DNA of 64,000 nt from Candidatus Spechtbacteria bacterium (GCA_016188605.1 JACPHP010000009.1:24786-88785); one strand, 5' to 3'. Positions 9,594 through 60,932 are shown, numbered from the stretch's first letter. Program-made: numbers and translations. Notes: generated by a model not told the origin, from the sequence alone.

Positions 9594-9796
9594 AGTGTGT
9601 GTAAAAAATTTTCAATTTTCAATGATCAATTTTCAATCAATGACCTAATGTCCTAATTTTCTCCGCCTGAGGCGGATCAGCCTATGGCTGAAAACACACG
9701 ATTAGAAATTGAAACATTGAAAATTTATTGCGTAGAGCAACGTGGTTGCCACGCAACTCTACGTTGTAAATTGAAAATTGATCATTGAAAATTCAG
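9594..9796. repeat. Palindromic intergenic element, 'ttttcaa' heptamer family, with a central double GC hairpin
   Basis: The left arm has degenerate 7-mer tandems (ttttcaa ttttcaa tgatcaa ttttcaa tcaatga). The centre at 9661-9695 holds ccgcc-tga-ggcgg plus tcagcc-tat-ggctga, and a nested hairpin cgtagag...gttgc-cac-gcaac...ctctacg. The right arm is the inverted array (attgaaaattgatcattgaaaatt). It belongs to the same family as 62630-62770. Confidence 0.6.
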
Positions 9797-10469: not shown

Positions 10470-10540
10470 TGTCATCTAGAACGCCCTGCCGTTGCGGGGC
10501 GGAGAGATCTCTCGTCGTTGCTACGACTTCGAGATGACAA
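10470..10540. repeat. Copy 2 of the 39-nt-core hairpin element, in the uvrB 5' leader
   Basis: gagagatctctcgtcgttgctacgacttcgagatgacaa at 10502-10540. It is preceded by the GC mini-hairpin ccctgccgttgcgggg and the flank gtcatctaga. Confidence 0.6.
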
Positions 10541-13969: not shown

Positions 13970-14032
13970 TGCAATACTAGCACGAAAATCGCTTGAGGAT
14001 TAGGACTTACGCTTTTGCCTGTCATCTTTAAT

Positions 14033-14094
14033 GTAGAAATACATTCTCTTGTATTTCTTGTTAAACGTAGAAATACATTCTCTTGTATTTCTTG
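14033..14094. repeat. Two tandem copies of the 28-bp hairpin unit gtagaaatacattctcttgtatttcttg, separated by ttaaac
   Basis: Units at 14033-14060 and 14067-14094. Each is agaaataca-ttctct-tgtatttct. The same unit (ctg variant) is embedded in the composite elements at 24936-24966 and 28896-28925. Confidence 0.7.
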
Positions 14095-14112
14095 TCGAGG
14101 AGTAGAAACTCC

Positions 14113-14151
14113 GAGAGATCTCTCGTCGTTGTTACGACTTCGAGATGACAA
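14113..14151. repeat. Copy 3 of the 39-nt-core hairpin element
   Basis: gagagatctctcgtcgttgttacgacttcgagatgacaa, preceded by the mini-hairpin ggag-tagaaa-ctcc. Confidence 0.6.
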
Positions 14152-19860: not shown

Positions 19861-20092
19861 AGCGAATATCTCAAAACGCAAATCTTAAATCGCAAAACTA
19901 CAACTCAAATCTAAAAACTACAAGAGGCTTATGGCGAAGATTTTAGATTTAAGATTTAGTAAAAGATTTTCCGCCCGAGGCGGATCAGCCTCTGGCTGAG
20001 AGTTTTACGATTTAGATTTAAGATTTGCCATTTGAGATTTGAGATAAATAATCGAATGTGAGACAATAATCTATTACACATCTAGCAACCCT
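19861..20092. repeat. Palindromic intergenic element, 'tctcaaa' heptamer family, with a short GC double hairpin at its centre
   Basis: Left arm of degenerate 7-mers (tctcaaa acgcaaa tcttaaa tcgcaaa actacaa ctcaaat...). Centre at 19955-19996: agtaaaagattttccgcccgaggcggatcagcctctggctgagag. The right arm is the inverted array (agatttaagatttgccatttgagatttgaga). Confidence 0.6.
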
Positions 20093-22382: not shown

Positions 22383-22888
22383 ATATATAGAGAGCACCCT
22401 CCTTCGCTCTGATAAGATCAGGGCTTCGAAAGGGTTGTTTTAATAAGTCCACAACCATGGACTTATTAAAACAAAAACCCCTCGACAAGCTCGGGGCAAG
22501 ACATCCACAAAGATGTAGGCAACTCCTGGCATGGGAACCGAGGATTTAGGATTTTTCCGAGGAACGCCTCAGTCGGAACCAAAACGCCCGGTGTCTAAGA
22601 AAAATCCCGTGTCTATCATAGGACAGACGTGTTGCCCACATCCTTATGGATGTATCGATACATGTTAGCAAATTAAGAACTATTTGTCAAGGAAGACGGA
22701 ATAACATATCATTATCTCAAAAATCAAATCGCAAATTGCAAATCTAAATCTCAAATCTTCAGCCCGAGGCTGATCCCCGCCAAAGGCGGGCAGGCGTCTC
22801 TGGCGGAAAAATACCGTAGTTTGTAGTTTCAAGATTTGAGTTGTAATTTTGAGTTTTGCGATTTCAGATTTGAGATTTAAATTTTACT
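22383..22888. other. Non-coding region of about 500 bp with several perfect hairpins; candidate structured ncRNA or leader that I could not identify
   Basis: No ORF of 60 aa or more. Hairpins tttaataagtcca-caacca-tggacttattaaa (about 22440-22475), acatcc-ttat-ggatgt and palindrome atgtatcgatacat (about 22650-22680). Mixed GC composition, unlike the AT-rich heptamer elements. The heptamer palindromic element occupies 22690-22888. Confidence 0.3.
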
Positions 22889-23986
22889 ATGTCCGACGAT
22901 CCATTATTATCAAAAAATCACCTATCTGAAGACGTGACCCTCGATCTGGCTCTCCGCCCTCACTCTTGGGACGACTATATCGGCCAAACAAACACTAAAA
23001 ACAATTTGCGCGTGTTTATTGAGGCCGCCAAAAAAAGAAGCGATCCTCTTGATCATGTGCTTATTTACGGGCCCCCGGGTCTTGGCAAAACGACCCTGGC
23101 CCATCTTATCGCTAGAGAATTAGGTACATCGATTAAACTAACCTCTGGCCCGGCAATTGAGCGTGTTGGCGACCTTGCTTCAATCCTCACCAATCTTACG
23201 CCCGGCGAAGTTCTTTTTATTGATGAAGCGCACCGTCTAAATAAAACAATTGAAGAGGTGTTGTACCCCGCGATGGAAAATCGCACGCTTGATATTATTC
23301 TCGGAAAGGGTCCCTCTGCGCGAACAATTCAACTTGAGCTCCCCCCGTTTACGCTCATTGCGGCAACAACACGCATCGGCCTGCTCTCATCTCCCTTACG
23401 ATCTCGCTTTGGCATAACGCTGCATGTAGAATACTACAGCCATGAGGATATTGGCCAGATACTTACTAGGTCAGCGCGAATGCTGGGCATACAGAGCAGG
23501 GGCAATGCACTGCCTTTAATTGCTAGATCTAGCAGATCCACTCCTCGCGTAGCAAATAGACTTATTAAAAGAGTGCGTGATTATGCTGATGTGCGCGGCG
23601 AAGGTATTATTACACCAGAAATTGTAAAGCACTCGCTTAATATGCTTGAAGTAGACGAGCTGGGGCTTGAAACAACAGATAGACGAATTTTGGAAATTAT
23701 TATAAACAAATTTCGCGGCGGGCCTGTTGGCATCTCTACTCTTGCCGCAGGCACCTCGGAAGAAGAGGATACAATTGAAGAAGTATACGAGCCATACCTT
23801 CTCCAACTCGGATTTATCGAACGCACGCCGCGCGGACGCATCGCCACCCCCCTCGCCTATCAACACCTCGGTATTGACCCAGTTAGAAACAACTCCGCGG
23901 AAACCTTGCAGACTCGTGTTAGTAATGCTAATGAAACTTCTAATGAGGTTGACATTACAAACCAAAACCAACAAAATCTGTTCTAG
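22889..23986 (+). CDS. ruvB: Holliday junction DNA helicase RuvB (with a C-terminal low-complexity extension of about 30 aa)
   Basis: [11 protein letters not shown], Walker B FIDEAHRL, 365 aa. Tail ...[31 protein letters not shown]. Confidence 0.9.
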
Positions 23987-24057: not shown

Positions 24058-24786
24058 ATGTCTGGACACTCCCATTGGGCAGGTATTAAACACAAAAAAG
24101 AAGCTAACGACAAAAAACGAGCTCAGGTCTTTGCTAAAGCCGCTCGCTTAATTACTGTCGCCGCGCGTGTTGGCGGGGGTGATGTTAATATGAACGCCAC
24201 ACTTCGTACTGCGATTGAAAAAGCGCGAAGTCTTAACATGCCTAAAGACAACATTGATCGCGCTATTAAAAAAGGCGTTGGAGGTATTGATGGTGAGCAA
24301 TTCGAAGAAACAACTATGGAGGCATACGGACCTGCTGGAACCGCCCTTCTTATTAAGGTTATTACCGACAACAAGAACAGAACCCTTGCCGACGTAAGAC
24401 ACGTGCTTAATCAGCACCAAGGCAAAATAGCAGAGGGGGGAAGCGTGCAGTGGTTGTTTGATAGAACGATTGTATTTTCACTTCAATTGCCAGCCGGTCA
24501 ATCTAAAGATGATTTTGAATTGTCGGTTATAGATGCCGGAGCAACAGACACGGAGTGGGACGAGGATACGCTTTTTGCATACTGCGCTCCAGATCATGCG
24601 GAAACCTTGCGAGTTAATCTTGAAAAACAGGGTGTAATAATTCAATCTTCAGAGCTTGAGATGCGCGCTAAAACAGAGACTGCCGTAGACACCCCTACTG
24701 AAGAACAGTTGCGCAAACTTTTGGAAGCGCTTGATGATTTGGATGATGTACAGAGCGTTTACAGTAATGTAGCTTTTACTGAATAA
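24058..24786 (+). CDS. yebC: YebC/PmpR-family DNA-binding regulatory protein
   Basis: N-terminus MSGHSHWAGIKHKKEANDKKRAQVFAK... 242 aa. Confidence 0.9.
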   Translation: MSGHSHWAGIKHKKEANDKKRAQVFAKAARLITVAARVGGGDVNMNATLRTAIEKARSLNMPKDNIDRAIKKGVGGIDGEQFEETTMEAYGPAGTALLIKVITDNKNRTLADVRHVLNQHQGKIAEGGSVQWLFDRTIVFSLQLPAGQSKDDFELSVIDAGATDTEWDEDTLFAYCAPDHAETLRVNLEKQGVIIQSSELEMRAKTETAVDTPTEEQLRKLLEALDDLDDVQSVYSNVAFTE

Positions 24787-24998
24787 CCTCAAAACTTAAA
24801 TAGTAAATCTAATCCTTAAATCTTCGCTGTAGTTTTCAGATTTGAGTTTTAGTAAAAGATTTTCCGCCCGAGGCGCCTGCCCGCCTCTGGCGGGGATCAG
24901 CCTTAGCGTAAAATTACATTTTGTTGTAATTTTTGTTAAACGTAGAAATACATTCTGTTGTATTTCTTGCTCTGGCTGAGAGTTTTGCGATTTGAAAT
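24787..24998. repeat. Composite palindromic intergenic element with a core of about 140 bp (24842-24980) that recurs inverted at 28875-29013
   Basis: Core agtaaaagattttccgcccgaggcgcctgcccgcctctggcggggatcagccttagcgtaaaattacattttgttgtaatttttgttaaacgtagaaatacattctgttgtatttcttgctctggctgagag, flanked by 'agatttgag' heptamer arrays. Confidence 0.7.
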
Positions 24999-25490
24999 TT
25001 GAGATTTATTTCTATGAACATTAGAGTACTCGGAATTGATCCTGGCACCGCGCGCGTAGGTTTTGGTGTTGTAGAAAAAAGCACTAGAGGCGCTGTTCAT
25101 ATTGCGTCTGGATGCATTACCACATCCGCCAAAACAGATCCGACTGAACGCCTGGCAACGATATTTACCCAAACTCAACAACTTATTGAAACTTACAAAC
25201 CTCAATTATTCGGAATTGAAGATTTATTTTACTTTAAAAATCAAAAAACTATCATTCAGGTAGGACAAGCGCGCGGCGTTCTGCTCCTTGCCGCCACTCT
25301 TGCAAAAATCCCTGTTTGTTCGTATACTCCCCTGCAGATTAAACAGGCTGTCACCGGCTATGGCCAGGCTGATAAGAACCAGGTCCAAAAGATGGTTCAA
25401 AAACTCCTGGGGCTTGAAAGCATACCTCGTCCCGATGATGCGGCCGATGGTCTTGCGATTGCAATATGCTGTCTCCATTCTTGTTTATAG
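24999..25490 (+). CDS. ruvC: Crossover junction endodeoxyribonuclease RuvC
   Basis: RVLGIDPGTARVGFGVVEK... The start may be the ATG at 25014 (MNIRVLGIDPG). Confidence 0.85.
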   Translation: MRFISMNIRVLGIDPGTARVGFGVVEKSTRGAVHIASGCITTSAKTDPTERLATIFTQTQQLIETYKPQLFGIEDLFYFKNQKTIIQVGQARGVLLLAATLAKIPVCSYTPLQIKQAVTGYGQADKNQVQKMVQKLLGLESIPRPDDAADGLAIAICCLHSCL

Positions 25491-26119
25491 AAAATCTAAT
25501 TTCATACGCACCAGGCGCAACAGCCGCGGGATTTACAAACGCAACACTGCATTTTGTTTTATTTGCGCCAATTTTAATTGTTTTTGTTGTTGCCGCAAGA
25601 CAAATCATCGGACTGCGTGGTGTCGGAATCGCGGCGCCTCTTGTTTCAATATATCTGGTTGCCCAAACGGGTGTTGCTCTTGGATTTATTGTTGTCTCGT
25701 CTGTGATTGCGGCTGGTTTTATAACGCGCCTTTTTCTAAAATATACCCATCTTCTGTTTCTTCCTCGTATCGGACTATTTATACTCGTTGCCATAGGCTC
25801 TACGCTGCCTTTCGTATTTATTGATATAAACAACCGATCAACAATTCCTTTTATAACGCCGCTTATAGTTATCACCGCCCTTGTGCTCACAGAAAGGCTA
25901 TTTGAGGGCAATAGACCGCCAGTTTTTGCCGCGGCAGAATTTTTATCTATTCTTCTGGCTGGTGTAATTATTATACGCATAGAAATTCTTGATTATATAT
26001 TCTTGGTTTATCCTTGGCTATCATTTGCACTCGGGGTTATTTTATTGGTATTTTTAGGACGTTGGACCGGACTGCGCCTGACCGAATATTTTCGTTTCAG
26101 GTCGTCTCTTGACCAATAA
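25466..26119 (+). CDS. Polytopic membrane protein (about 6-7 TM helices); candidate 7TM partner of the adjacent ATP-grasp/retropepsin protein
   Basis: Highly hydrophobic ORF of 217 aa. The opposite-strand ORF 25351..25980 is R/T-rich and was judged a shadow. Its position directly upstream of the ATP-grasp gene matches the described 7TM-ATPgrasp-protease neighbourhood. Confidence 0.5.
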   Translation: MLSPFLFIENLISYAPGATAAGFTNATLHFVLFAPILIVFVVAARQIIGLRGVGIAAPLVSIYLVAQTGVALGFIVVSSVIAAGFITRLFLKYTHLLFLPRIGLFILVAIGSTLPFVFIDINNRSTIPFITPLIVITALVLTERLFEGNRPPVFAAAEFLSILLAGVIIIRIEILDYIFLVYPWLSFALGVILLVFLGRWTGLRLTEYFRFRSSLDQ

Positions 26120-26184
26120 TGTGGGGTATCGGATACCCCGCATAAGATGTCTCACATAAACACTCTGCTATTCTCTTCTTAATT

Positions 26185-27531
26185 ATGAATCCTTTTTTTA
26201 ATGGCCTGCTTGGCATTAACGCGCGCAATTTGCTGTTTATACAGCGGTCAACTTCGCCGTACACGCGCGTATTAATAGACAATAAACTTAAAACAAAAGA
26301 GATTTTAGAAAAAAACAATATTCCCACGCCAAAAACATTCGCTGTTATTCGATCGGCTGACGAAGCTCTTAATTTTAACTGGTCGTCGCTTCCTTTGAGT
26401 TTTGCTCTTAAACCAAATAAAGGATTTGGTGGCGCGGGTATTGTGGTGGCATATGGAGAGTGTAAAAAAAATCACTCGCGAGCTGTAGGCTCGCCCCACA
26501 TACCCACTCGCACATGGATCGGTTTACGCCGTACTCATCTGGACACCAATTTTCTCTCAAAACATATTATAGACATCCTTGATGGAAAATATTCCATAAA
26601 TGGAACGCAAGACACCGCGTATTTTGAGGAAAGGATTAAACTACTCAAAGAATTTCGCATATTTACATCCAAAGGAATGCCTGATATTAGGGTTGTGGTT
26701 TACAACAGCATTCCTGTTATGGCGGAGTTGCGCTTGCCGACAACAGAATCTGACGGAAGGGCAAACCTGCACTTGGGCGGAGTTGGCGTGGGCATAGATA
26801 TCTCTACTGGTAAAACTACTTTTGCAATTCACCACGACAAACCAATAACATTTCATCCCGACAACTTAAGGATTCCATTGGCAGGCCTCGCCATCCCTTA
26901 TTGGGAAGAAATACTTGAGCTTGCGATTGCTTCTCAACAAGCTATTGGATCAAATTTCCTGGGGGTTGATATAAGCATTGATAAGTATAGAGGGCCTATG
27001 ATCTTGGAGTGCAACGCGCGCCCTGGACTCGCTATTCAGCTTGCCAATAGGGCACCACTTTATTCACGCCTTCAGCGCGTAGAGGGGTTAAAAATACATT
27101 CTATAAAACAAGGGGTACAAATTGCAAAAAATATATTTTGTGACGACAATTCGCATGAACAGGAGGGGTTACAGCGCACTGATATTATTGGTATAAGAGA
27201 AAATATTTCTATAATCACGCCTAATGGTATCACACACCCTACCGTGGCCAAGATAGACACCGGCGCCTATCGCACAACGCTTGATGTAAAAATAGCGGAA
27301 CAATTAAATCTAACTGGGATAAAAAAGTACAAACATGTTCGCGGTGTGCTAGGAAAAGAAAATAGACCAATTATTGATCTTGTTTTTGAATTACGAAATA
27401 AAAAAATAAGCACAGAAGCATTTGTGGCTGATCGAGAGGAAATGAAACACGATATTATTATAGGCAGAAGAGATCTTAAACGATTTTTAGTCGATCCCGC
27501 AAAAAATGTTAGAATTCCTTACAGTGAATAG
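26185..27531 (+). CDS. RimK-like ATP-grasp ligase fused to a C-terminal retropepsin-like domain (DUF785, formerly 'putative ATP-dependent zinc protease')
   Basis: N-terminal ATP-grasp region (IRSADEALNFNW..., GFGGAGIVVAYGE, ...). C-terminal AKIDTGAYRTTLDVKIAEQLNL is the hallmark DTGA aspartyl-protease-like motif of PF05618-type domains. Confidence 0.55.
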   Translation: MNPFFNGLLGINARNLLFIQRSTSPYTRVLIDNKLKTKEILEKNNIPTPKTFAVIRSADEALNFNWSSLPLSFALKPNKGFGGAGIVVAYGECKKNHSRAVGSPHIPTRTWIGLRRTHLDTNFLSKHIIDILDGKYSINGTQDTAYFEERIKLLKEFRIFTSKGMPDIRVVVYNSIPVMAELRLPTTESDGRANLHLGGVGVGIDISTGKTTFAIHHDKPITFHPDNLRIPLAGLAIPYWEEILELAIASQQAIGSNFLGVDISIDKYRGPMILECNARPGLAIQLANRAPLYSRLQRVEGLKIHSIKQGVQIAKNIFCDDNSHEQEGLQRTDIIGIRENISIITPNGITHPTVAKIDTGAYRTTLDVKIAEQLNLTGIKKYKHVRGVLGKENRPIIDLVFELRNKKISTEAFVADREEMKHDIIIGRRDLKRFLVDPAKNVRIPYSE

Positions 27532-27571
27532 CAAAAACTCCCCGCCGCGGCGGGGAGTTTTTGCTATTCAC

Positions 27572-28780
27572 TTATTTTATGCGCACCCTTGCAAATTTTC
27601 TTCTTCCAACCCTAACAACACTTCCGTCGCTAGGTGTAATGGTTTGCCGCCAGTCTTCAATTATTTCATCATTAATAAATACCGCCCTTTGCTCCACCAT
27701 GCGCTTTGCTTCGCTTTTTGAAGGCACGAGGTTAAGCGCAACAAGAAAGTCCATTATATTTATCTCTTTTTTGGATATAGTGATGGCTGGTATATCTGAA
27801 GGTATTTGATGTTGCGCAAAAACCCTATCAAATTCTTCCGCCGCTTCATCAGCGTCTTTTTTACCCCAATAAAATTCAGTGATTATGTGTGCTAGTAGGG
27901 CTTTGGTAGCGCGAGGATTGCCTCCCTCTACAAGGTTTTGTATTTCTTCCTTAGATAATTCTGTTAAGTAGGTGAAATAATCTCTTACTAAAGCGTCTGG
28001 TATGCTCATTAATTTTCCGTACATAGAGTTTGGCTCCTCTGAAAGTCCAATATAATTACCCAAACTCTTGCTCATTTTTTGTGCGCCGTCCGTGCCGATA
28101 AGGTATGGGGTTAAAACAACGTCTTGCGGCTCCATGCCGGCTTGTTTTTGCAAAACGCGCCCCGTAAGAATATTAAATTTCTGCTCGCTTGCCCCAACTT
28201 CCACATCCGCCTTAACCATTACAGAATCGTACCCTTGAAGGAGCGGATATAACATTTCGTGTGCCATAAACGGCCGCTCGTTTTCCAAGCGCTTGCGAAA
28301 TGTTTCATGACTCAAAAGATAAGATACTGACAGCCGTGATGTTAGTTCCAAGATGTCTTTTAGGCGAAATTTGTTAAACCACTCGCTCTGAAAATGGAGT
28401 TCTGTCTGATCTTTTTTAAGAATTTTTAAGATTTGATTTTTATACAAAGCGCTGTTATTTTTAATCTCTTTTAGAGATAACGAATGGCGCGTAGTATCTT
28501 TACCCGACGGGTCCCCTATAGAAGCCGTGTAGTCTCCAATTATAATAACCGCGGTATGACCAAGCTCCTGGAAATGTCGCAATTTCCACAAGGGTATAGT
28601 GTGGCCAAGGTGAATATCTGGCGCTGTTGGATCAATCCCAAACTTAACACGCAATTTTTTGCCCCCTCTAAGGGCTTCTAACAGGTGGTCCTTCTCGATA
28701 ATCTCTACTACGCCACGCTCTATAACCTGAATAACAAGTTCTTGAGTGGCCTGTGTATCGCTTGTTTTTTTTATTGACAT
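27572..28780 (-). CDS. tyrS: Tyrosyl-tRNA synthetase
   Basis: HIGH motif in GIDPTAPDIHLGHTIPL. KMSKS present (KMSKSLGN). C-terminal S4-like region. I chose the ATG at 28780; the ORF-track maximal start is 28834. Confidence 0.85.
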   Translation of the reverse strand: MSIKKTSDTQATQELVIQVIERGVVEIIEKDHLLEALRGGKKLRVKFGIDPTAPDIHLGHTIPLWKLRHFQELGHTAVIIIGDYTASIGDPSGKDTTRHSLSLKEIKNNSALYKNQILKILKKDQTELHFQSEWFNKFRLKDILELTSRLSVSYLLSHETFRKRLENERPFMAHEMLYPLLQGYDSVMVKADVEVGASEQKFNILTGRVLQKQAGMEPQDVVLTPYLIGTDGAQKMSKSLGNYIGLSEEPNSMYGKLMSIPDALVRDYFTYLTELSKEEIQNLVEGGNPRATKALLAHIITEFYWGKKDADEAAEEFDRVFAQHQIPSDIPAITISKKEINIMDFLVALNLVPSKSEAKRMVEQRAVFINDEIIEDWRQTITPSDGSVVRVGRRKFARVRIK

Positions 28781-28834
28781 ATAATATAAAGGTGAGGCTA
28801 ATATAAATCTGTCTCGAAAATAAATTTTAAGCAC

Positions 28835-29125
28835 TAAATTTATTTTGAAATTTTATTATCTTAAATCTCAAATGGCAAATCTCTCAGCCAGAGCAAGAAA
28901 TACAACAGAATGTATTTCTACGTTTAACAAAAATTACAACAAAATGTAATTTTACGCTAAGGCTGATCCCCGCCAGAGGCGGGCAGGCGCCTCGGGCGGA
29001 AAATCTTTTACTGAATCTAAAATTTCAAAATTTCTTCCGTAGATTTAAGATTTGAGTTTTAGTTTTGCGATTTTAGATTTGAGTTTTGAGATAACCATAA
29101 TTAATCTAAATATAACATAACGCCC
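28835..29125. repeat. Composite palindromic intergenic element; its inverted core (28875-29013) matches 24842-24980
   Basis: ctctcagccagagcaagaaatacaacagaatgtatttctacgtttaacaaaaattacaacaaaatgtaattttacgctaaggctgatccccgccagaggcgggcaggcgcctcgggcggaaaatcttttact is the reverse complement of the 24.8-kb core. Flanked by 'agatttgag' heptamer arrays. Confidence 0.7.
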
Positions 29126-31618
29126 ATGACTGGTCTATTAAAAAAACTTCGTACTATCCTCCTTTATTTCATAGCTTTAATCATGGGGCTTTTTCTTGTT
29201 GGCGGCGGAGTAGTCGCCTACTATGTTAAAACCCTCCCCTCTCCTCAAGACTTAACAAATATGCGCGTAGTTGAGTCCACAAAAATATATGATCGCACGG
29301 GTACTGTGCTTTTATATGATATTTATGATGAACAGAAAAGAACAATTATTTCTCAAGATCAAATTCCTAATTTTATTAAATGGGCGACAATTTCCGCTGA
29401 AGATGATTCTTTTTATACTAATTTTGGCATAGATGTTAAGGGAATAATCCGCGCTATGTTTAAGAACATTCAAAGCGGAGGCATGCAACTTCAAGGAGGT
29501 TCAACAATAACCCAGCAGTTTGTAAAGAATGCATTTTTAACTCGCGAGCAGACAATACCTAGAAAAATAAAAGAGCTAATATTAACGCTTGAAATTGAAT
29601 GGCGCTACCCCAAAGATCAAATTCTTACATGGTATCTTAATCAAATTCCTTATGGCTCAAACACTTACGGAATTGAGGCTGCTTCCGAATTTTATTTTAA
29701 CAAACACGCGCAAGATCTAACTATAGCGGAATCCGCCCTCCTTGCCGCGATTCCCCGCGCGCCAACATATTACTCTCCTCATGGTAATCATCCTGATGAG
29801 CTTATAGCGCGCCAACAATATATTTTGGATCGCATGCGAAAATTTGATTATATCACGCAAGAAGATTACGATAATGCGCTGAAAGAAAAACTTACTTTCC
29901 AAAAAAATCAAGGGGGTTTTAAAGCGCCTCATTTTGTGCTTTACGTAAAAGAACAGCTTGAAACAATATATGGACCTAACTATCTCCAGTCATCAGGTCT
30001 TGTTGTGCGCACAACACTTGATTGGGATCTGCAAAAAAAAGCTGAGGAGATTATTAAAGAAGAGGCGCTTAAAAATCTCAAAAATAAAGGGCAGAATGCC
30101 GCCCTTGTTACTATCGACCCTAAAACTGGCCAAATTTTAACGATGGTGGGGTCTCGCGACTACTTCGCCGACCCATCTCCGGCCGGTTGTATCTCGGGAA
30201 AAAATTGCGCCTTTGACCCTAATGTTAATGTTGCTATTCGTCCGCGCCAACCAGGATCGTCGTTCAAGCCTTTTGCATACTCAGAAGCCTTTAATAAAGG
30301 ATACACTCCTGATACTATTATTTTTGACATACCTACAGAATTTAACGCCTACTGCGCTCCTGATGGGTCGCAAGATAAAGATCAATATGGCTTAAAATGT
30401 TATCACCCGCAAAACTACACAGGAACTTTCCGCGGCCCCGTAACAATGAAAGAAGCGTTGGCGCAATCAATTAATATTCCTGCCATTAAAACCCTTTACC
30501 TTGCTGGCGTATCGGAAACAATTAGTCTTGCTAAAAAAATGGGTATTACGTCTTTGCGCGATCCAAGCCGGTATGGATTGTCTTTAGTTTTAGGTGGCGG
30601 CGAGGTAACTCTTCTTGAAGAAACGTCCGCGTATGGAGTGTTCGCGACAAGTGGGAGTTATATGCCCACAACATCCATTATATCTATCACGGATACTGAA
30701 GGAAATGTTGTTCAAAAACACAACGAAACACCACAGCTAGTGCTTGATAAATCAGTCACTGATTTAATTAGCGGCATTCTCTCTTCTGACGATCTAAGAG
30801 CGCCTGTTTTTGGTAGGCATGGAAATCTTTACACTCCCAATATATCAACTGCCGTAAAAACCGGCACAACGCAAAACTATCGCGATGCGTGGACTGTGGG
30901 ATACACGCCCGATATTGTTGTTGGTGTATGGGTTGGCAATAACGATGGCACGTTTATGACGCAAGGGGGGGTTAATGCCGCAGCTCCTATTTGGAATAAA
31001 ATAATAACATATATCTATAATCGCCCTAAATCAAATAGTGATTTTATAGTTTCTCGCGCTTCTACTCTACCAGTATTATCACCATCGCAGACAGGAAACC
31101 TTATTCTCGATGGTAATATAGCCGGACTTGAAACCGTAGATGGGGTATTTCATACAATCTTATATTTCCTTGACAAGGACAATCCTCGCGGACAAGGAAA
31201 CTCTCAAGGCGACGCTCAATTTTCTCAATGGGAGGCTGCTATATCAAACTGGATTAAAACTAACCCTATTTTAATTCCGCCGCCGCCAACAGCGCCGCAA
31301 CCTAATAATCCAACACAACCAATACCGCCCATATCTATTGATTTACTATCTCCAACGCAATACCAACTCCAAAAAAATTCTCAAAATATTGCTGAGATTA
31401 TTTTAATATCAACCACGCCAATCTCTACTCTTCGCATAACGCAAGATGATAGGATTATTTTGGTAAAGGATTTATCTGATCAAAACACATTGTCTTTTAC
31501 TGCGGATATTTATCTTAATAAACCTATTAAAGACAGTAAAACCTCTACTGTAAGAATAGAGGTTGGTAATAAGTCGGGAGAATCTTTGTCTAAATCATTT
31601 CCTTTTATATCTAACTAA
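29126..31618 (+). CDS. Class A penicillin-binding protein (PBP1A; glycosyltransferase plus transpeptidase)
   Basis: GT51 motifs ISAEDDSFYTNFGID and QGGSTITQQ. Transpeptidase SSFKPF (SxxK) and KTGTT. N-terminal TM anchor. Pro-rich C-terminal extension. Confidence 0.9.
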   Translation: MTGLLKKLRTILLYFIALIMGLFLVGGGVVAYYVKTLPSPQDLTNMRVVESTKIYDRTGTVLLYDIYDEQKRTIISQDQIPNFIKWATISAEDDSFYTNFGIDVKGIIRAMFKNIQSGGMQLQGGSTITQQFVKNAFLTREQTIPRKIKELILTLEIEWRYPKDQILTWYLNQIPYGSNTYGIEAASEFYFNKHAQDLTIAESALLAAIPRAPTYYSPHGNHPDELIARQQYILDRMRKFDYITQEDYDNALKEKLTFQKNQGGFKAPHFVLYVKEQLETIYGPNYLQSSGLVVRTTLDWDLQKKAEEIIKEEALKNLKNKGQNAALVTIDPKTGQILTMVGSRDYFADPSPAGCISGKNCAFDPNVNVAIRPRQPGSSFKPFAYSEAFNKGYTPDTIIFDIPTEFNAYCAPDGSQDKDQYGLKCYHPQNYTGTFRGPVTMKEALAQSINIPAIKTLYLAGVSETISLAKKMGITSLRDPSRYGLSLVLGGGEVTLLEETSAYGVFATSGSYMPTTSIISITDTEGNVVQKHNETPQLVLDKSVTDLISGILSSDDLRAPVFGRHGNLYTPNISTAVKTGTTQNYRDAWTVGYTPDIVVGVWVGNNDGTFMTQGGVNAAAPIWNKIITYIYNRPKSNSDFIVSRASTLPVLSPSQTGNLILDGNIAGLETVDGVFHTILYFLDKDNPRGQGNSQGDAQFSQWEAAISNWIKTNPILIPPPPTAPQPNNPTQPIPPISIDLLSPTQYQLQKNSQNIAEIILISTTPISTLRITQDDRIILVKDLSDQNTLSFTADIYLNKPIKDSKTSTVRIEVGNKSGESLSKSFPFISN

Positions 31619-31980: not shown

Positions 31981-33120
31981 TTATTTCCTTAGTGGCATCA
32001 CAATATAACGATATTCTTGTTTTGAAGACGGCTCAAACACTATCGGGCCGTCTTTTTGTTTTATTTTAACTATAACATCAGAATCCTCTAGGGGTTGCAA
32101 GCCGTCAAGCAAATATTGATAATTAAACACAATATCTTGATCTTCACCTCCCTCAATATTGCAAGACACGCGAGATTTAAATGACCCCCTGTCGTAATCT
32201 TCTGTTGATATTTCAACGCATTTCTGCGCTGGTAATACACGAATACCTATTTCTCTTAGCTTATTTGCGAACAATCCGGCGCTTTTTATTGTATTTAATA
32301 ATTCTGATTTAGAAATAATTACTTTTGTCTTCCATTCTTTGGGAATAATTTGTATATAATCAGGATAATCACCATCAATAAGACGAGAGATAAGTGTTAG
32401 TGCCGGAATATTTGATTGTTCGTTGGGATTATATTCAAACAATACCTGGCCCTGGCCCAAATAACAAACTAGCGGTGAAATTGATTCATCTTGCTGAAAA
32501 ATACGTATAATTTCCTGAGCTGCCCTCATTGGTAAAATAAAATTTATATCATCATCTGATTTTGACTTATATAGATCTGTATTTTCTGCTAAACGAAAAC
32601 TATCTGTAGCAACGCAAATAATTGAGTTGGGTGTAAATTTTACTAATATGCCCGTTAACTCTGGCTTAGTATCAACAACGGATAAAGAGTGTATAACGCG
32701 TTCGAGCGAATGCGCAAATTTATTCGCCTCTATATTAAAACCGTTATCGCGAGAAAGTTTAGGTAAAAGAGGATAGTTTGTCGGGTCATCGCCTTTTATT
32801 TGAGCCACAACGCCTTCATTTACTCCTGTAATAATAAGTGTTTGTTTTTTTTCAGCTCCTATAATTGAATCATCTGACATTGTCCGTATAAGACCGCTTA
32901 ATGTATGCGCTGGTAAGGCCAATACGCCTTCTTTCTGCACTTTAGCGGAAACCCACGCGGAAATACCAACCTCTAAATCAGTAGCAATAAACACTAATCT
33001 ATTCTGCTCTGCTCTAATAAGAATATTTTGAAGAATGGGCAGTGTGGTATTACGACCGCATACACGCTCAACTAACTGTATTCCTTGAAAAAATTTATTT
33101 TTAGTACAGGTGAATTCCAT
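31981..33120 (-). CDS. dnaN: DNA polymerase III beta sliding clamp
   Basis: 379 aa, N-terminus MEFTCTKNKFFQGIQLVERV..., immediately downstream of dnaA. Confidence 0.85.
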   Translation of the reverse strand: MEFTCTKNKFFQGIQLVERVCGRNTTLPILQNILIRAEQNRLVFIATDLEVGISAWVSAKVQKEGVLALPAHTLSGLIRTMSDDSIIGAEKKQTLIITGVNEGVVAQIKGDDPTNYPLLPKLSRDNGFNIEANKFAHSLERVIHSLSVVDTKPELTGILVKFTPNSIICVATDSFRLAENTDLYKSKSDDDINFILPMRAAQEIIRIFQQDESISPLVCYLGQGQVLFEYNPNEQSNIPALTLISRLIDGDYPDYIQIIPKEWKTKVIISKSELLNTIKSAGLFANKLREIGIRVLPAQKCVEISTEDYDRGSFKSRVSCNIEGGEDQDIVFNYQYLLDGLQPLEDSDVIVKIKQKDGPIVFEPSSKQEYRYIVMPLRK

Positions 33121-33342
33121 AATCTAATTATTATATTTATTTATAGTGTAATAGTTGTTAGTGTCTCAACAATTCTGGGGATAAGTAAATTTAACCTTTT
33201 ATTTATCAGTAGAATAGATATGCATATCTATGTGTATAAACAAGGCGCAATATAGTGTATTACTAGGCGCTTTTAGAAATATTCGTACTTGTGTTCAGTT
33301 CTACCACAACTTATCCATATGGTTTTCCACACGTTGTACACC
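33121..33342. promoter_or_regulatory. AT-rich dnaA-dnaN intergenic region with DnaA-box-like 9-mers (candidate oriC part or DUE)
   Basis: ttatccata, ttttccaca, ggggataag and tgtgtataa are 0-2 mismatches from TTATCCACA or its complement. Very AT-rich. Confidence 0.4.
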
Positions 33343-34713
33343 CTACAATTGTAGTATTTTTTGTTTTATTATCTCAAATTCCTCTCTAAAAAATTCATCT
33401 TTTTTTAATTTTTCCGCAATTTTATTACAAGCATGCATAACTGTGGTATGATCTCTTCCCCCAAGTGTTTTGCCAATTAATGGATAGGAGGTGTGAATAA
33501 CTTCGCGCATGGCATACATAATAACCTGACGCGCGTGAGCGAGCTCTTTTCTTCTGTTTTTGCTTAATATTTCCTTTTCTTTAATATTATAAAACCCAGA
33601 CACTGCGGCAGTAATAACCTTGTGTGTTATGAGAGGACGAGAGTTTTTAACAATACCCCTTAATGCTTTTTTAGTATCTTCTAATGTGATTTGCCGATCT
33701 GGCTCATTTGCTTTAGATGTAAGCAGAATATTAAGAGCGCCTTCTAGCTCCCTCATATTTCTTTGTATTTGTTCCGCGATAAATTGAAGGATACTTAGGT
33801 GTAAATTAAGGTTTTTTTCTTTACATTTTGCTTGTAAAATGGCTAGTCGCATTTCATATTCTGGGTAACTGATATCAGCGATCATTCCTCCCTCGAAACG
33901 AGATCGCAATCTCTCCTCAAGTGTTGCAATTGATTGTGGCGGTCTGTCAGAGCTTAAAATAATTTGTTTATTGTTTTCGTAAAGAGTATTAAATGTGTGG
34001 AAAAACTCCTCTTGTGTTGTTACTTTACCGGCTATAAATTGAATATCATCAATGATTAGCGCGTCAATTTTCCTATAGCGCGCCTTAAATTCATCCATTT
34101 TTTTGTTGCGCATTGACACAACAAGATCGTTTAAAAAATGTTCAGAAGAAAGGTATCTAATTTTTTTTCCTTTTTGGAAAAATTCATTTCCTATGGCTTG
34201 CAAAAGATGTGTTTTACCAAGCCCCACCCCCCCGTATATAAATAAGGGGTTATAAAGTGTTCCGGGTTGTTTAATAATAGCTTGGGCTGCCGCATGAGCT
34301 ATTACATTTGAAGATCCCACTATAAATGAGTCAAAAGTATATTTTGAATTAAGTCCTGTCTCTTTATTTACCACTATGCGTTCCAAGGGCAGTTCGTATA
34401 AATTTGTTTTTTGCATCTGTTGTGGGGTAATCAAACGAACCCTAGTATTTTGAGTTAAGGGATTTTTTCGCGCGTTTATTATATAGCTTATTTCTTTTAT
34501 TTCAGGGGCAAGCGTTCTTATTGCCTTAAGTATATGTTTATGATATTTATTTTCTAACCATTCTTTAGCAAAGCCGCTAGGAACAGCAATAATAACCTCC
34601 CCATCATTTTTTGCAGTGATAGAAGTATTACGAAACCACGTTATGTAATTTGCGGGAGAAATTTGAAGCTCTATGTCGGCCAAAGCCGCTTGCCATAGTT
34701 CGTTCGGGTTCAT
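33343..34713 (-). CDS. dnaA: Chromosomal replication initiator DnaA
   Basis: Walker A GGVGLGKTHLLQAIGN, DDIQFIAGK, and C-terminal DNA-binding helix HTTVMHACNKI. 456 aa. Confidence 0.95.
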   Translation of the reverse strand: MNPNELWQAALADIELQISPANYITWFRNTSITAKNDGEVIIAVPSGFAKEWLENKYHKHILKAIRTLAPEIKEISYIINARKNPLTQNTRVRLITPQQMQKTNLYELPLERIVVNKETGLNSKYTFDSFIVGSSNVIAHAAAQAIIKQPGTLYNPLFIYGGVGLGKTHLLQAIGNEFFQKGKKIRYLSSEHFLNDLVVSMRNKKMDEFKARYRKIDALIIDDIQFIAGKVTTQEEFFHTFNTLYENNKQIILSSDRPPQSIATLEERLRSRFEGGMIADISYPEYEMRLAILQAKCKEKNLNLHLSILQFIAEQIQRNMRELEGALNILLTSKANEPDRQITLEDTKKALRGIVKNSRPLITHKVITAAVSGFYNIKEKEILSKNRRKELAHARQVIMYAMREVIHTSYPLIGKTLGGRDHTTVMHACNKIAEKLKKDEFFREEFEIIKQKILQL

Positions 34714-35123
34714 TGCAAAAAAATTTAACTTGCTAATTCCAACACAGGTTATATTGGTTGGTTACTTTATTGGAAGGTGTCGGAAACCGCGGGTTTCTGA
34801 CTATAAAATTTTTCATTCAATACCGACCCGCTTGCTAGTCAGAGGTTCATTCCAGGTGTGATTAATTATATCACAAGGTACTTTATAAAAGTAAAATAAC
34901 GGTAAAGAGCGGAAAAATCATTAAAAACTGTTAATAAGTCTGTGGATTAACGGTGGATAACTTTTTTAATAGATTAAACTAGAAAAAATTATACTTCTAT
35001 TTTTAAATTAGCATAGAAAAAATTTTTTGTATTGTCCAACAAACAGATATTAAACATTTAATATTAAATTTGACCAACAAACTAATCTCTGCTACAAAAA
35101 GAATGAGCGCTAATAATATCATT
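34714..35123. promoter_or_regulatory. Divergent dnaA / rpmH intergenic region with adjacent DnaA boxes (candidate oriC and dnaA promoter)
   Basis: tgtggatta (34941-34949) and ggtggataa (34953-34961) lie in an AT-rich stretch of about 400 bp between divergent dnaA and rpmH. Confidence 0.5.
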
Positions 35124-35258
35124 ATGTCGGTTACATACCAAAAAAAGACCAAAAAAAGAAATCGCAAGCATGGTTTTATGGAAAGGAGTTCAACTCCCAG
35201 TGGAAGAAGGGTTTTAGCTAGGAGAAGGACTAAGCAAAGAAAGAATTTATCAGTATAA
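35124..35258 (+). CDS. rpmH: 50S ribosomal protein L34
   Basis: [44 protein letters not shown] (44 aa) is L34-like. The ORF track extended it to an upstream ATG at 35070. Confidence 0.85.
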
Positions 35259-35259
35259 T

Positions 35260-35607
35260 ATGCCTACAAAGCGCCTTTTGGCGTTGCGCGGTTCGTATAA
35301 TATTCAAAATCTTTTCTCTAAAGGAAGGGTTATAAAAACACCACACTTCCTTATTAGGTATAAGGAAAAAAAAGATGATAGCGTGAGGGCGGGTGTTATT
35401 GTGACTAAAAAGATAGCTAAGAAAGCCGTTCAAAGAAATAAAATTAAGAGGCAGGTTCGCGAATGTCTTCGCAGTGTCGCGGATTTTTTTATTGGAGGAG
35501 TAGATGTTATTGTAATACCAAATTCAATAGATATGGAGTTTCAAGATATGAAAAACGAGATTATATTAGCTCTCAAAACAAGCAGACTTATTATTATAAA
35601 AGAATAG
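35260..35607 (+). CDS. rnpA: RNase P protein component
   Basis: 115 aa, basic. Position rpmH-rnpA. Motif KKAVQRNKIKRQVRE. Confidence 0.8.
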   Translation: MPTKRLLALRGSYNIQNLFSKGRVIKTPHFLIRYKEKKDDSVRAGVIVTKKIAKKAVQRNKIKRQVRECLRSVADFFIGGVDVIVIPNSIDMEFQDMKNEIILALKTSRLIIIKE

Positions 35608-35611
35608 ATTT

Positions 35612-35836
35612 ATGCTCAGTTTTATTAATGTTATTATATCAAGAATCTTCCTGGTGTGTATTAAATTGTATCAGTATACATTATCCCCCGACCACGGTTT
35701 AGCGTCTTATTATACAGTGGGCGTATGCCGCTCCCGTCCAACATGCTCAGAATTTGCGTATTTAGAAATTAAAAAAAGAGGCATTAAAGCAATCCCAGCA
35801 GTTTTTATAAAGATAAAGAATTGCCAGCCTTTTTAA
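35612..35836 (+). CDS. yidD: Membrane protein insertion efficiency factor YidD
   Basis: YQYTLSPDHG...CRSRPTCSEFA matches YidD (CRFxPSCSxYA-type). Confidence 0.75.
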   Translation: MLSFINVIISRIFLVCIKLYQYTLSPDHGLASYYTVGVCRSRPTCSEFAYLEIKKRGIKAIPAVFIKIKNCQPF

Positions 35837-36600
35837 TATATATGTGGTCAACGATTACAAATACATTATATGGCTTCTTTCATCCTGTTCTAATACAGCC
35901 GCTTTTTAATCTTCTCATTGTAATTTATATTGTTTTTCCAATAAAAGATCTTGGCATCGCTATTATTTTAATGACATTATTTGTGCGCGCTGTGACATAC
36001 CCCCTCTCTCAGAAGGTTGCCGTTTCACAAAAAAAACTTTCCTTACTTCAGCCCCAAATAAAGGAAATTGAAAAAAAATACGCGCACGACAATGAGGTAA
36101 AAACTAAGGCGATGATGAATTTTTATAAAGAGAACGATGCCAATCCATTTAGCGGCTGTTTTCCAACAATAATACAACTTGTTTTATTTATAGGTTTATA
36201 TTATATGCTGCAGGAGAGTATGGCGCCCCAAAATACTTTTGGTGATTTATATTCATTTATTCCCGCGCCTACAACGCTAAATACCAATTTTCTTGGGATT
36301 ATAGACATAACTCATTCAAACAAAGTGCTTGCCATTCTTGTTGGTGTAGCAACATATCTACAATCAAAAGTGACATTTAATCAAAAGAAACACATTGGCG
36401 CGCAAGAGACAAAGAGTAGCGAACCAGATATTCAAAAAATTATTGGAATGCAAATGGTGTATTTTCTTCCTATTTTTATAGGTTTTATTGCATGGACTCT
36501 TCCGGCGGGGCTGTCATTGTATTGGATAACAACAACGCTATTTTCTTTTATTCAACAATATAGTATAAATAAGAGATTCAATGTAGGGTTGGGTGCGTAA
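35821..36600 (+). CDS. yidC: YidC/Oxa1-family membrane protein insertase (short form)
   Basis: 259 aa with 5 TM helices, directly after yidD. Conserved ...LLQPQIKEIEKKY... region. Confidence 0.8.
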   Translation: MPAFLIYMWSTITNTLYGFFHPVLIQPLFNLLIVIYIVFPIKDLGIAIILMTLFVRAVTYPLSQKVAVSQKKLSLLQPQIKEIEKKYAHDNEVKTKAMMNFYKENDANPFSGCFPTIIQLVLFIGLYYMLQESMAPQNTFGDLYSFIPAPTTLNTNFLGIIDITHSNKVLAILVGVATYLQSKVTFNQKKHIGAQETKSSEPDIQKIIGMQMVYFLPIFIGFIAWTLPAGLSLYWITTTLFSFIQQYSINKRFNVGLGA

Positions 36601-36681
36601 AGCACCACGCGGTGCGGGGCGTTTGTGCAAAGAGGGCGCGGTCCTCCACCGAGAGTTTTACACAATTAGCAATTCTGTTTT

Positions 36682-37137
36682 ATGGAGACGGATGAATTGG
36701 TAAAAAAAGAAGCACACACGCTACTTTCCCATATGGGATATGTGTGTGTTGCTCCAACGGAAGTAAAGGAGCGTGAAAATCGCGTATCTATTTCGCTTTC
36801 AATTGAGCGTCCTCACGAACTTATTGGAGAACGCGGCGCTACTCTTAACGCGCTTCAGCATATTATTCGTTTATGTGTTGTAAAGAAATATAATATTCAC
36901 ATACCCATAGACATTGATATTAATAACTATAAAAAGAAAAGAGAAGAATTTCTTCAAGAATTTGCAAAACAAATCGGGGAACGAGTTAGGATGACGAAAA
37001 ATGAGATGGAGCTTGAACCCATGTCCCCCTTTGATCGTCGGGTAATACACTGTACTCTTGCGGAGTATTCTGACTTAATAACGGAAAGCAAAGGAGAAAA
37101 CGAGAGTCGTCATATTGTCGTGCGCTTCTTTTCTTAA
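36682..37137 (+). CDS. Jag/KhpB-like RNA-binding protein (KH/R3H)
   Basis: R3H-like C-terminus FDRRVIHCTLAEYSDLITESKGENESRHIVV. Position after yidC. Confidence 0.7.
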   Translation: METDELVKKEAHTLLSHMGYVCVAPTEVKERENRVSISLSIERPHELIGERGATLNALQHIIRLCVVKKYNIHIPIDIDINNYKKKREEFLQEFAKQIGERVRMTKNEMELEPMSPFDRRVIHCTLAEYSDLITESKGENESRHIVVRFFS

Positions 37138-53870: not shown

Positions 53871-53882
53871 TGATTAAGATTG

Positions 53883-60922: not shown

Positions 60923-60932
60923 CTAATAATCA

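Follow-up and report, generated by a model that had tools for sequence, protein, structure and literature searches.

Two 132-nt blocks lying in inverted orientation around a segment containing ruvC, a 7TM_transglut gene, an ATP-grasp/Zn_protease gene and tyrS were identified in a genome of Candidatus Spechtbacteria. They are probably not the arms of a switch but recent copies of a single selfish, non-coding repeat that forms hairpins, like those of the REP or Ssn/NTS kind. The sequence analysed (GCA_016188605.1 JACPHP010000009.1:24786-88785, hereafter the window) is a stretch of 64,000 nt from a metagenome-assembled genome (MAG) of this group (Patescibacteria, or candidate phyla radiation), and all coordinates are counted from its first letter. 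The observations that carry this reading are the anatomy of the repeat, an empty site in a relative, a cross-phylum family of related double hairpins, the covariation of their stems, and their association with genes encoding small GIY-YIG proteins.

An exact inverted pair of repeats

Pairwise alignment showed that the first block (24851-24982, core copy 1) is the exact reverse complement of the second (28881-29012, core copy 2) at 132 of 132 positions. A preliminary description of this DNA had placed near-identical inverted cores at 24842-24980 and 28875-29013, coordinates that proved accurate to within about 10 nt, and had correctly noted that the sequences around them differ. Over the next 40 nt on each side only 23 and 25 positions match (about 60% identity), while a repeat finder reported inverted arms of 173 nt with 95% complementarity (24833-25005 and 28858-29030). 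The exact blocks are separated by 3898 bp. The 25-nt 5' part of the core gave three matches in the window and none in 100 shuffles.

An assembly artefact, in which one repeat was placed twice or a contig was misjoined at the repeat, is scarcely credible as the origin of this pair. Short-read assemblies do break inside the core: Logan contigs enter both copies from outside and stop about 30 nt inside, as a k-mer assembler would at a repeat. However, the yebC-to-core and core-to-ruvC junctions, and the junction between the core and the downstream gene for a class A penicillin-binding protein (PBP), were reproduced as in the window in Logan assemblies of several independent runs, and the gene order agrees with that of relatives. 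A fault in a single assembly thus does not account for the cores.

Anatomy of the composite repeat

The base unit of the core, referred to here as the double-hairpin element (DHE), is 30 nt long and consists of TCCGCCnnnGGCGGA followed by TCAGCCnnnGGCTGA, two abutting 6-bp hairpins with 3-nt loops in which TCCGCC-nnn-GGCGGA (module 1) leads directly into TCAGCC-nnn-GGCTGA (module 2). It is intact at 9662-9691 and 19970-19999, and five DHE-derived copies are present in the window. These make up a complete nested series (Table 1), from a short form, through a form with one additional GC hairpin, to the 132-nt form that also contains a pair of AT hairpins. In the intermediate form the additional hairpin, CCTG-CCCGCC-TTT-GGCGGG, is placed between the GGCG and the GA of module 1; this third GC hairpin also occurs alone in another MAG (locus L109). 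Two compensatory base-pair changes distinguish the two 34-nt AT units of the core (AGAAATACA/TGTATTTCT versus AAAATTACA/TGTAATTTT).

Much of this composite structure had been anticipated. The short form exists, although at 19958-20002 and not at 19934-19996, a displacement of about 20 nt. Of the two extra inserts proposed for the long form, the first is real (24876-24894), whereas the second is not a single 28-bp unit but 68 nt made of two 34-nt units. A free tandem pair of the AT hairpin was found where it had been placed (14033-14094), and the related GC double hairpins were located at 9662-9691 and 22759-22807. Copies of the sub-elements elsewhere were likewise found: the DHE, the GC hairpin and the AT pair recur at further sites in the window, and the DHE recurs in other genomes.

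The suggestion of a nested insertion resembling a miniature inverted-repeat transposable element (MITE) was borne out in part. The nested build-up is visible in the series within the window, in the presence of the AT pair in a second host repeat, and in the absence of the core from a relative (see below). The element is not a MITE in the strict sense, as the ends of the 132-nt unit (AGTAAAAG.. and ..CTGAGAG) are not inverted repeats. Nor is it a REPIN, since the DHE modules fold separately, side by side, and not as one long hairpin. A check for target-site duplication at the boundaries gave only an ambiguous AG, and DHE insertions in tRNA loops of other genomes are without duplication.

The second host of the AT pair is an unrelated cloverleaf-like repeat (TGTCATCTCGAA...TTCGAGATGACA), copies of which were found at 944-1009, 10470-10539 and 14020-14150. 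This family is of separate interest: it is a 66-nt element with a 12-bp outer stem (TGTCATCTCGAA / TTCGAGATGACA) enclosing three hairpins (DNA fold z = -6.0), the first of which is different in each copy, and its third copy contains the AT pair.

Heptamer arrays hosting the repeats

All DHE copies in the window lie within degenerate heptamer arrays. The host arrays are long imperfect palindromes, with AAATCTN units on the left and AGATTTN units on the right; the array containing the short form lies between tsaE (- strand) and a gene on the + strand. Palindromes of the same AAATCTN/AGATTTN kind that contain no core were found at 46678-46797 and 48699-48812.

Heptamer palindromes with other units were also observed in intergenic spacers (9607-9793, 49490-49600, 53786-53876, 60927-61020, 62636-62760 and 57541-57591), with units AATTTTC, AAATTAC and ACGAATA, together with one perfect (ACAGAAT) x 7.3 array. 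Such palindromes are a general trait of the source genome and are present in the relative with 80% identical TyrS described below, but not in more distant Spechtbacterales. The last units of two right arms, at 20025-20052 (+) and 28878-28850 (-), contain TTGCCA, a spacing of 16-17 nt, and AATAAT or TAAAAT. These promoter-like elements face the downstream genes (a gene at 20093, and tyrS) and are conserved upstream of tyrS in the same relative; judging by sequence, the arrays may double as promoters. Further heptamer arrays (7501-7537, 7720-7783 and 8081-8113; units TTCGAAA, ACCGCTG, GTTGTCT and TGAATTG) lie inside the open reading frame (ORF) at 7308-8690 (-), part of which may actually be intergenic.

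Empty sites in a relative and the age of the repeats

Evidence for insertion was provided by a Logan contig of a relative whose TyrS is 80% identical (L127). The contig carries yebC, ruvC, the 7TM gene and the ATP-grasp gene in this order, followed by tyrS on the opposite strand, as in the window. Its yebC-ruvC spacer contains a 132-nt heptamer palindrome without any GC core, and reads ..AAGTTTTAG|TTTTGCGTTTT.. where the window has ..GAGTTTTAG|TAAAAGATTTT...GGCTGAGAG|TTTTGCGATTT... Upstream of tyrS the relative reads ..GATTTTAG|TTTTGCCATTTGAG.. (..GATTTTAG|TTTTGCC..) exactly where the window has the core, this second site being visible for 22 nt only and consisting of array sequence throughout. 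The short form at 19958 has an equal context (..GATTTAG|...|TTTTACG..). The heptamer context shared by the three sites suggests that a leader-bearing unit was placed three times, and the core-free yebC-ruvC site of the relative, together with the 22 nt seen beside its tyrS, suggests that the 132-nt version reached its two positions after the split from L127. The dinucleotide AG is found at each end of the unit, and at the empty site just once, which is suggestive only, and no target duplication is claimed.

More distant relatives were compared as well. No DHE modules, AGATTTG-type arrays or GIY-YIG gene were found in the corresponding regions of three distant Spechtbacterales lineages (TyrS 52-55% identical; 20 kb of sequence for L219-L222, shorter for L223/L224), suggesting that both layers, arrays and hairpins, are recent in the source lineage.

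The preliminary description had raised the possibility that the pair mediates inversion of the intervening 3.9-kb segment, thereby changing which genes are read from the yebC and PBP sides. Homologous recombination could act on perfect inverted repeats spaced 3.9 kb apart, and each core has the same orientation upstream of the first inner gene (ruvC or tyrS), an arrangement that would be kept either way round. Local rearrangement does occur here, as ruvC alone is inverted in one Spechtbacteria relative. A switch of this kind is nevertheless very unlikely. No recombinase or invertase gene was found by Pfam search in or beside the enclosed segment, whose neighbours are YebC and the class A PBP; the enclosed genes are housekeeping genes and not phase-variable cargo; and the other copies and simpler forms in the window enclose nothing. 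The orientation of the segment is the same in the window, in L127, which has no cores, and in L219/L220 (two records with the same protein). L221/L222 have only ruvC reversed, with no 7TM gene call, an arrangement corresponding neither to the layout of the window nor to inversion of the whole segment. No inverted repeat was found around this ruvC in L221, and the locus is without DHE modules or AGATTTG-type arrays. As short-read contigs do not span the core, the evidence on orientation comes from the window and its relatives. The occurrence of the same order in the core-free relative indicates that the gene arrangement is older than the repeats, and the orientation in the window is, on this sequence comparison, the ancestral one; there is no sign in the sequences that the pair flips the enclosed genes. 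As a separate observation, the inverted ruvC of L221/L222 (12503-13006, inverted relative to yebC) belongs to Candidatus Spechtbacteria SB0662_bin_43.

A double-hairpin family found across phyla

A DHE pattern with 23 fixed bases (CCGCCNNNGGCGGATCAGCCNNNGGCTGA) was scanned against a 596-Gb genome collection, in which about 0.02 matches would be expected by chance according to our own estimate. At least 120 stretches matched. All the matches listed were from uncultivated genomes (MAGs or single-cell assemblies), labelled as many classes of Patescibacteria and as Ignavibacteria, Bacteroidota, Omnitrophota, Delta- and Gammaproteobacteria, Planctomycetota, Verrucomicrobiota, Binatia, Elusimicrobia, Stahlbacteria, Bdellovibrionota and Thermodesulfobacteriota. 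As the GC content of the DHE loci ranges from 31 to 61%, mis-binning of one lineage does not explain this breadth. The 28-nt AT hairpin gave no matches in the metagenome scan, indicating that the source population is not in that collection. A search for the literal DHE sequence in the searchable literature returned only unrelated primer matches.

Throughout the family the stems are kept while the loops vary freely, purines prevailing in loop 1 and pyrimidines in loop 2, on either strand. The base preceding CCGCC is T in 118 of 120 copies among the matches listed, and the flanks show a preference for T-Y on the left and R-R on the right. Direct repeats of at least 9 nt were present in the flanks of 16.7% of copies, compared with 0.75% of shuffled flank pairs, and periodicity at lag 7 averaged 0.33 versus 0.26, few flanks being clean arrays. 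Together these two signals suggest that the DHE often lies in tandem arrays whose unit is lineage-specific. Strong heptamer periodicity around every DHE was considered and dropped, and placement of the DHE in the loop of a host hairpin was marginal as a general rule (perfect flank stems of at least 6 bp in 7.5% of copies versus 3% after shuffling).

A cis-acting role as a structured leader or intercistronic RNA, affecting the processing, stability or translation of the ruvC and tyrS messages, was also weighed. Both cores are oriented alike relative to the downstream gene. Copy 1 is very likely co-transcribed with yebC and ruvC, probably inside one transcription unit, and the yebC-ruvC spacer folds strongly as RNA (-73.8 kcal/mol, z = -7.6) with no T-run terminator after it. 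Against this, the copy at 9662 is antisense between two genes of the - strand, and that at 22759 is reversed between two + strand genes. About 80% of 124 DHE copies in other genomes lie outside long ORFs, and in 51 contexts between co-directional genes 27 had the same orientation as the genes and 24 the opposite; this lack of bias argues against a strand-specific RNA role. In addition, the close relative has no core between yebC and ruvC and none in the 22 nt seen beside its tyrS-side site; the stems are conserved in sequence across phyla beside unrelated genes; and searches of Rfam (whole window at the gathering threshold; 19.8-29.2 kb at E values up to 10) returned neither a family for any of the hairpins nor a T-box upstream of tyrS. 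An RNA function for copy 1 is possible, but the absence of orientation bias and the core-free relative make it an improbable reason for the existence of the element.

Several side observations concern the company kept by the DHE. Ten IMG/VR contigs (L128-L137) contain the exact DHE pattern, some of them in GAAAGTN arrays like those of Ignavibacteria loci; none of these copies adjoins a GIY-YIG gene, and the contigs could be a route between hosts or could be misclassified. A second palindrome of 20 nt, CCTGCCTRCCGGYAGGCAGG, was found in L046, L069, L091, L092, L133, L043, L064 and L120, which are MAGs of several phyla and one viral contig, and it sometimes adjoins a DHE. Hairpins in the style of the NTS/SRM repeats of Neisseria (GTCATTCCCGCG...GCGGGAATCTAG) are also present in genomes with DHEs (L071 at about 4350-4420, L032, L093, L092, L031 and L102). 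In L071 such a hairpin has a DHE in its loop, so that two families of hairpin repeats are nested.

Association with GIY-YIG genes and tRNA genes

Clustering of the ORFs within 3 kb of the 120 listed DHE copies yielded one recurrent small family, a single-domain GIY-YIG protein of about 80-90 aa, whose gene lies within 130 nt of the DHE in 12 of these 120 DHE-selected loci. The reverse test was made with 80 metagenome loci picked by similarity to GIY-YIG proteins only (four query sequences). The module TC[CA]GCC-N3-4-GGC[GT]GA was found within 200 nt of the ORF in 50 of the 80, and the exact DHE pattern in 12. The modules of these 50 loci usually lie in a tRNA fragment that has been duplicated. 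Looser modules (NNNGCC-N3-4-GGCNNN) numbered 191 across the 66 kb close to the genes, compared with 15 across the remaining 192 kb (2.9 versus 0.078 per kb, a 37-fold concentration). These loci contained 77 perfect abutting double hairpins.

A set of 56 distinct double hairpins from the protein-picked loci, anchored on the top three base pairs only, was used for covariation. Changes affecting both partners were seen in all six free pairs, pairing is intact in 99.6% of cells, and none of 500 shuffles reached the observed score. The stem variants comprised TCC, TGC, TCA, CTC, TGA, CCC, CCA and TTC, each with its complement.

In 54 of the 80 GIY-YIG-selected loci a tRNA gene was present at the end of the GIY-YIG ORF, and two arrangements were recognised. 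Type 1 begins with a 5' tRNA fragment (mostly tRNA-Ser) whose D-loop contains a DHE at a precise position (GGTTT|AACTGG); the GIY-YIG ORF comes next, and its last codons extend over the 5' end of a tRNA gene that is intact. In type 2 the intact tRNA gene comes first, the ORF lies behind it, and a 3' fragment split in its T-loop by the DHE (GGTTC|DHE|GAATCC..) comes last. Anticodon loops contained such insertions as well. The tRNA-loop inserts are exactly 30 nt long and are not accompanied by a duplication. The proteins themselves match only PF01541 in Pfam, with a weak NCBIfam match to a group I intron endonuclease model.

Two kinds of variant arrangement were also seen. In L011 (6910-7005) and L057 (2860-2950, -) tRNA-like fragments with a DHE in the D-arm lie upstream of intact tRNA genes, and their anticodon arm is swapped for a GC hairpin with a 3-nt loop (GTCGCC TCA GGCGAC and CCCCGCC ACG GCGGGG). 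In L067 (1061-1653), L058 (1358-1975), L140, L143 and L161 the whole unit of tRNA fragment, DHE and GIY-YIG ORF is tandemly duplicated, and the first GIY-YIG ORF of L067 reads through the DHE.

Proposed mechanism and competing explanations

The following course of events is proposed for the source lineage. A DHE base unit residing in AGATTTN arrays would have gained two additions in one lineage, a third GC hairpin at the junction of the two modules and, within the module 2 loop, two 34-nt AT hairpins. Once the lineage had separated from the relative with about 80% TyrS identity, the resulting 132-nt block would have been copied whole into two intergenic sites with like heptamer contexts (..TTTAG | NTTTGC..); such recent copying would explain why the copies are identical and their flanks are not. 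By analogy with Ssn/NTS and RAYT/REP, a GIY-YIG nuclease encoded elsewhere in the genome may recognise the hairpins in single-stranded DNA (ssDNA) and drive their spread, or the last step may instead have been gene conversion between similar heptamer arrays. The inverted orientation would be incidental, although RecA could occasionally invert the 3.9 kb.

Spread without any dedicated machinery, by slippage, template switching and gene conversion between arrays, with conversion keeping the cores identical, would make the nuclease superfluous. The three leader-bearing copies lie in an AGATTTN context with some array sequence in common, heptamer arrays supply homology all over the window, and the excess of direct repeats of at least 9 nt in the flanks of copies from other genomes points the same way. 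We regard this as unlikely to be the whole explanation, as conversion does not account for identical stems in at least 120 stretches with labels from many phyla and with unrelated flanks, for the precise 30-nt insertions in the D-, anticodon- and T-loops of tRNAs, or for the concentration of modules beside GIY-YIG genes. The block of identity also stops abruptly at the same bases in all copies.

Several points weigh against the interpretation of the cores as copies of a mobile, nuclease-driven repeat. The case for mobility in the source genome comes from one comparison, in which the relative is fairly distant and is represented by a single short contig. As the three leader-bearing copies have similar heptamer contexts, homology-driven conversion would give the same picture with no enzyme needed, and the AG at both ends is too short for a target duplication. 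The published SRM consensus has no match in the window, and the DHE contains no GTC. Only about 10% of the DHE-selected loci have an adjacent GIY-YIG gene, and the link between the two could partly reflect a common liking for tRNA remnants. The nearest solved structures for the GIY-YIG proteins are UPF0213 (1zg2, 1ywl) and SLX1, so that these proteins are at most candidate members of the Ssn clade (cd10448). Finally, no GIY-YIG gene was found in the 64-kb window by tblastn and inspection of small ORFs, which makes action in trans an assumption.

A broader interpretation can be offered tentatively, as a possibility that we hold with rather less conviction than the selfish-repeat reading of the two cores. 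The DHE and the small GIY-YIG nuclease might together constitute an undescribed class of ssDNA mobile element in more than ten bacterial phyla. As parts of the same tentative proposal, the nuclease cassette would lodge in the loops of tRNA genes and rebuild the gene from a carried copy, while the 30-nt hairpin end would spread alone, without target duplication. Targets would be T-Y|R-A sites in hairpin loops and tandem heptamer arrays, serial insertion of hairpins into loops would build composites such as the 132-nt core, and the lineage-specific heptamer arrays might be either targets or footprints. No description of the phylum breadth or of the tRNA-loop architecture was found in the papers and family libraries searched.

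Few parts of bacterial genomes are as poorly understood as short hairpin repeats, and for most families the agent of their spread is unknown. The DHE and the GIY-YIG protein offer a concrete candidate pair of substrate and enzyme that, on sequence grounds, appears distinct from the published Ssn/NTS motif; if the pairing is true, the range of sequence-specific ssDNA nucleases usable as tools would be wider. The proposal also offers a possible explanation for nested repeats in heptamer arrays, and DHE composites explain why short-read assemblies of uncultured bacteria break at such sites.

Genomic context of the inverted pair

The features of the locus are collected in Table 1. The preliminary description had placed both copies at operon boundaries, which is correct for copy 2, between the divergent tyrS and PBP genes, and probably incorrect for copy 1, between the co-directional yebC and ruvC. 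Copy 1 ends 32 nt before the ATG of ruvC at 25015 and 16 nt before the TTG at 24999. A tRNA scan found no tRNA genes in the window, and no transposase was found among the small ORFs checked there.

Table 1. Coordinates of the repeats, their component parts, the surrounding heptamer arrays and the neighbouring genes in the window.
Feature	Coordinates	Strand	Remarks
Core copy 1, 132-nt composite hairpin repeat	24851-24982	+	In yebC-ruvC spacer; DNA fold of nested hairpins, -29 kcal/mol, z = -6.3
Core copy 2, 132-nt repeat	28881-29012	-	Between tyrS (-) and PBP gene (+); 132/132 to copy 1; outer junction in independent Logan contig
Leader AGTAAAAGATTT	24851-24862	+	Common to copies at 19958, 24851 and 29012; left insertion boundary versus empty site in L127
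Hairpin module 1, TCCGCC CGA GGCG	24863-24875	+	Final GA displaced to 24895-24896
Inserted GC hairpin CCTGCCCGCCTCTGGCGGG, CCTG-CCCGCC-TCT-GGCGGG	24876-24894	+	Same insertion point in 22759 copy
GA and TCAGCC, 5' arm of module 2	24895-24902	+	
68-nt insert in loop of module 2, two 34-nt AT hairpin units	24903-24970	+	
TCT loop, GGCTGA 3' arm of module 2, terminal GAG	24971-24982	+	
Short form: leader AGTAAAAGATTT, intact DHE (19970-19999), GAG	19958-20002	+	Fold of two 6-bp hairpins, z = -4.3
Intermediate form: DHE and third GC hairpin, without AT pair	22759-22807	-	Repeat finder 93%; flanks differ
Intact DHE	9662-9691	+	Within different heptamer palindrome (AATTTTC unit)
Free tandem pair of 34-nt AT hairpin	14030-14094	+	Inserted in unrelated cloverleaf-like repeat 14020-14150
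Heptamer array upstream of copy 1	24787-24850		AAATCTN-like, then AGATTTN-like
Heptamer array (AGATTTN) downstream of copy 1	24983-25010		Extends to ruvC start
Heptamer array, inner side of copy 2	28858-28880		Promoter-like TTGCCA-N17-TAAAAT facing tyrS
Heptamer array (AGATTTG, 7.6 copies), outer side of copy 2	29013-29094		
ruvB	22889-23986	+	Pfam
yebC	24058-24786	+	Pfam; followed by 212-nt spacer
ruvC	24999-25490	+	Pfam; listed ORF opens with TTG 24999, ATG at 25015
7TM_transglut gene	25466-26119	+	Pfam
ATP-grasp/Zn_protease gene	26185-27531	+	Pfam; last of three + strand genes in enclosed segment 24999-27531
tyrS, tyrosine-tRNA ligase	27572-28771	-	Pfam; 100% identical to Candidatus Spechtbacteria MAG protein; followed by 291-nt spacer
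Class A PBP gene	29126-31618	+	Pfam

Other features of the region were noted. The convergent ATP-grasp and tyrS genes are separated by a perfect 50-nt palindrome (27523-27572) that is terminator-like in both directions, and Logan contigs break there also. The neighbourhood of the replication origin (31981-37137) comprises dnaN (31981-33120, -), dnaA (33343-34713, -), a non-coding stretch of 546 nt, rnpA (35260-35607, +) and a KH/R3H jag-like gene (36682-37137). Its gene order is wholly conserved in Spechtbacterales relatives, cumulative GC skew is lowest at about 32-34 kb, and the inverted pair lies 5-10 kb from the origin. Between pilB and ruvB, about 320 nt of non-coding sequence (22383-22700) contain several GC-rich stems with no Rfam match and could be an unannotated RNA.

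Comparison with known repeat systems

Like MITEs, the repeats are small, non-coding, multi-copy and intergenic; unlike them, the 132-nt unit has no terminal inverted repeats, no parent insertion sequence and no clear target duplication. Work by Elhai and colleagues in 2008 reportedly described SDR elements of Nostoc, hairpins of 21-27 nt nested in heptamer STRR arrays and in each other. Both the phylum and the sequences differ from those of the Spechtbacteria repeats, and reportedly no nuclease has been linked to the Nostoc elements.

Similarity is also seen with the REP/BIME/REPIN repeats and their RAYT (Y1 HUH) proteins (PMC3116915, PMC2817692). Both are short, GC-rich extragenic palindromes present in many copies and mosaics, with one domesticated nuclease-type gene flanked by its own repeats and a proposed recognition of ssDNA hairpins. 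They differ in that the partner gene of the DHE, as identified by ORF clustering, encodes a GIY-YIG protein and not a Y1 transposase, and in that the DHE stems do not change from phylum to phylum, whereas each REP is specific to a lineage. A REPIN, moreover, is formed by two inverted REPs in one long hairpin, in contrast to the two side-by-side hairpins of the DHE.

The closest structural analogues are the GC clusters and the double-hairpin or repetitive hairpin-forming elements of fungal and sponge mitochondria (PMC4478555, PMC2800124). These are likewise GC-rich hairpins of 15-50 nt in AT-rich spacers, often double or triple, with conserved stems and variable loops, and their units shuffle and merge into larger composites. 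In yeast, AG flanks the GC clusters; it is likewise found at each end of the Spechtbacteria unit and occurs once at the empty site. The mitochondrial elements, however, belong to organelle genomes, are shared by close relatives only and have no reported nuclease gene, whereas the DHE is found on bacterial chromosomes (the window locus being near dnaA and dnaN), in many phyla and linked to GIY-YIG genes. The DHE would be a bacterial counterpart to these elements, which have themselves long been unexplained.

A further close parallel is the Ssn system. Ssn proteins are single-domain GIY-YIG nucleases (CDD cd10448) that cut ssDNA beside NTS/SRM hairpin repeats, which flank the ssn genes and are also dispersed genome-wide; the authors point out a resemblance to RAYT/REP and insertion sequences (Chenal et al. 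2025, PMC11893778). In both systems short hairpin repeats flank the gene for a small single-domain GIY-YIG protein (about 80-95 aa), and these repeats are also dispersed in intergenic DNA, conserved as hairpins and found across phyla. The DHE, however, consists of two abutting 6-bp triloop hairpins without a GTCWY leader, and the SRM consensus (HGTCWY N0-2 YYVSBRH N0-5 WNVSBRG N0-2 RNCYNB), absent from the window, matched 18 times in about 0.9 Mb of DHE loci. The DHE-linked genes lie at tRNA genes, beside a duplicated tRNA fragment bearing a DHE in its loop, and the main text of the Ssn paper makes no mention of tRNA, Patescibacteria or Bacteroidetes (PMC11893778). By analogy, the DHE and its GIY-YIG partner may work in the manner of Ssn and NTS while representing a system distinct from the one described.

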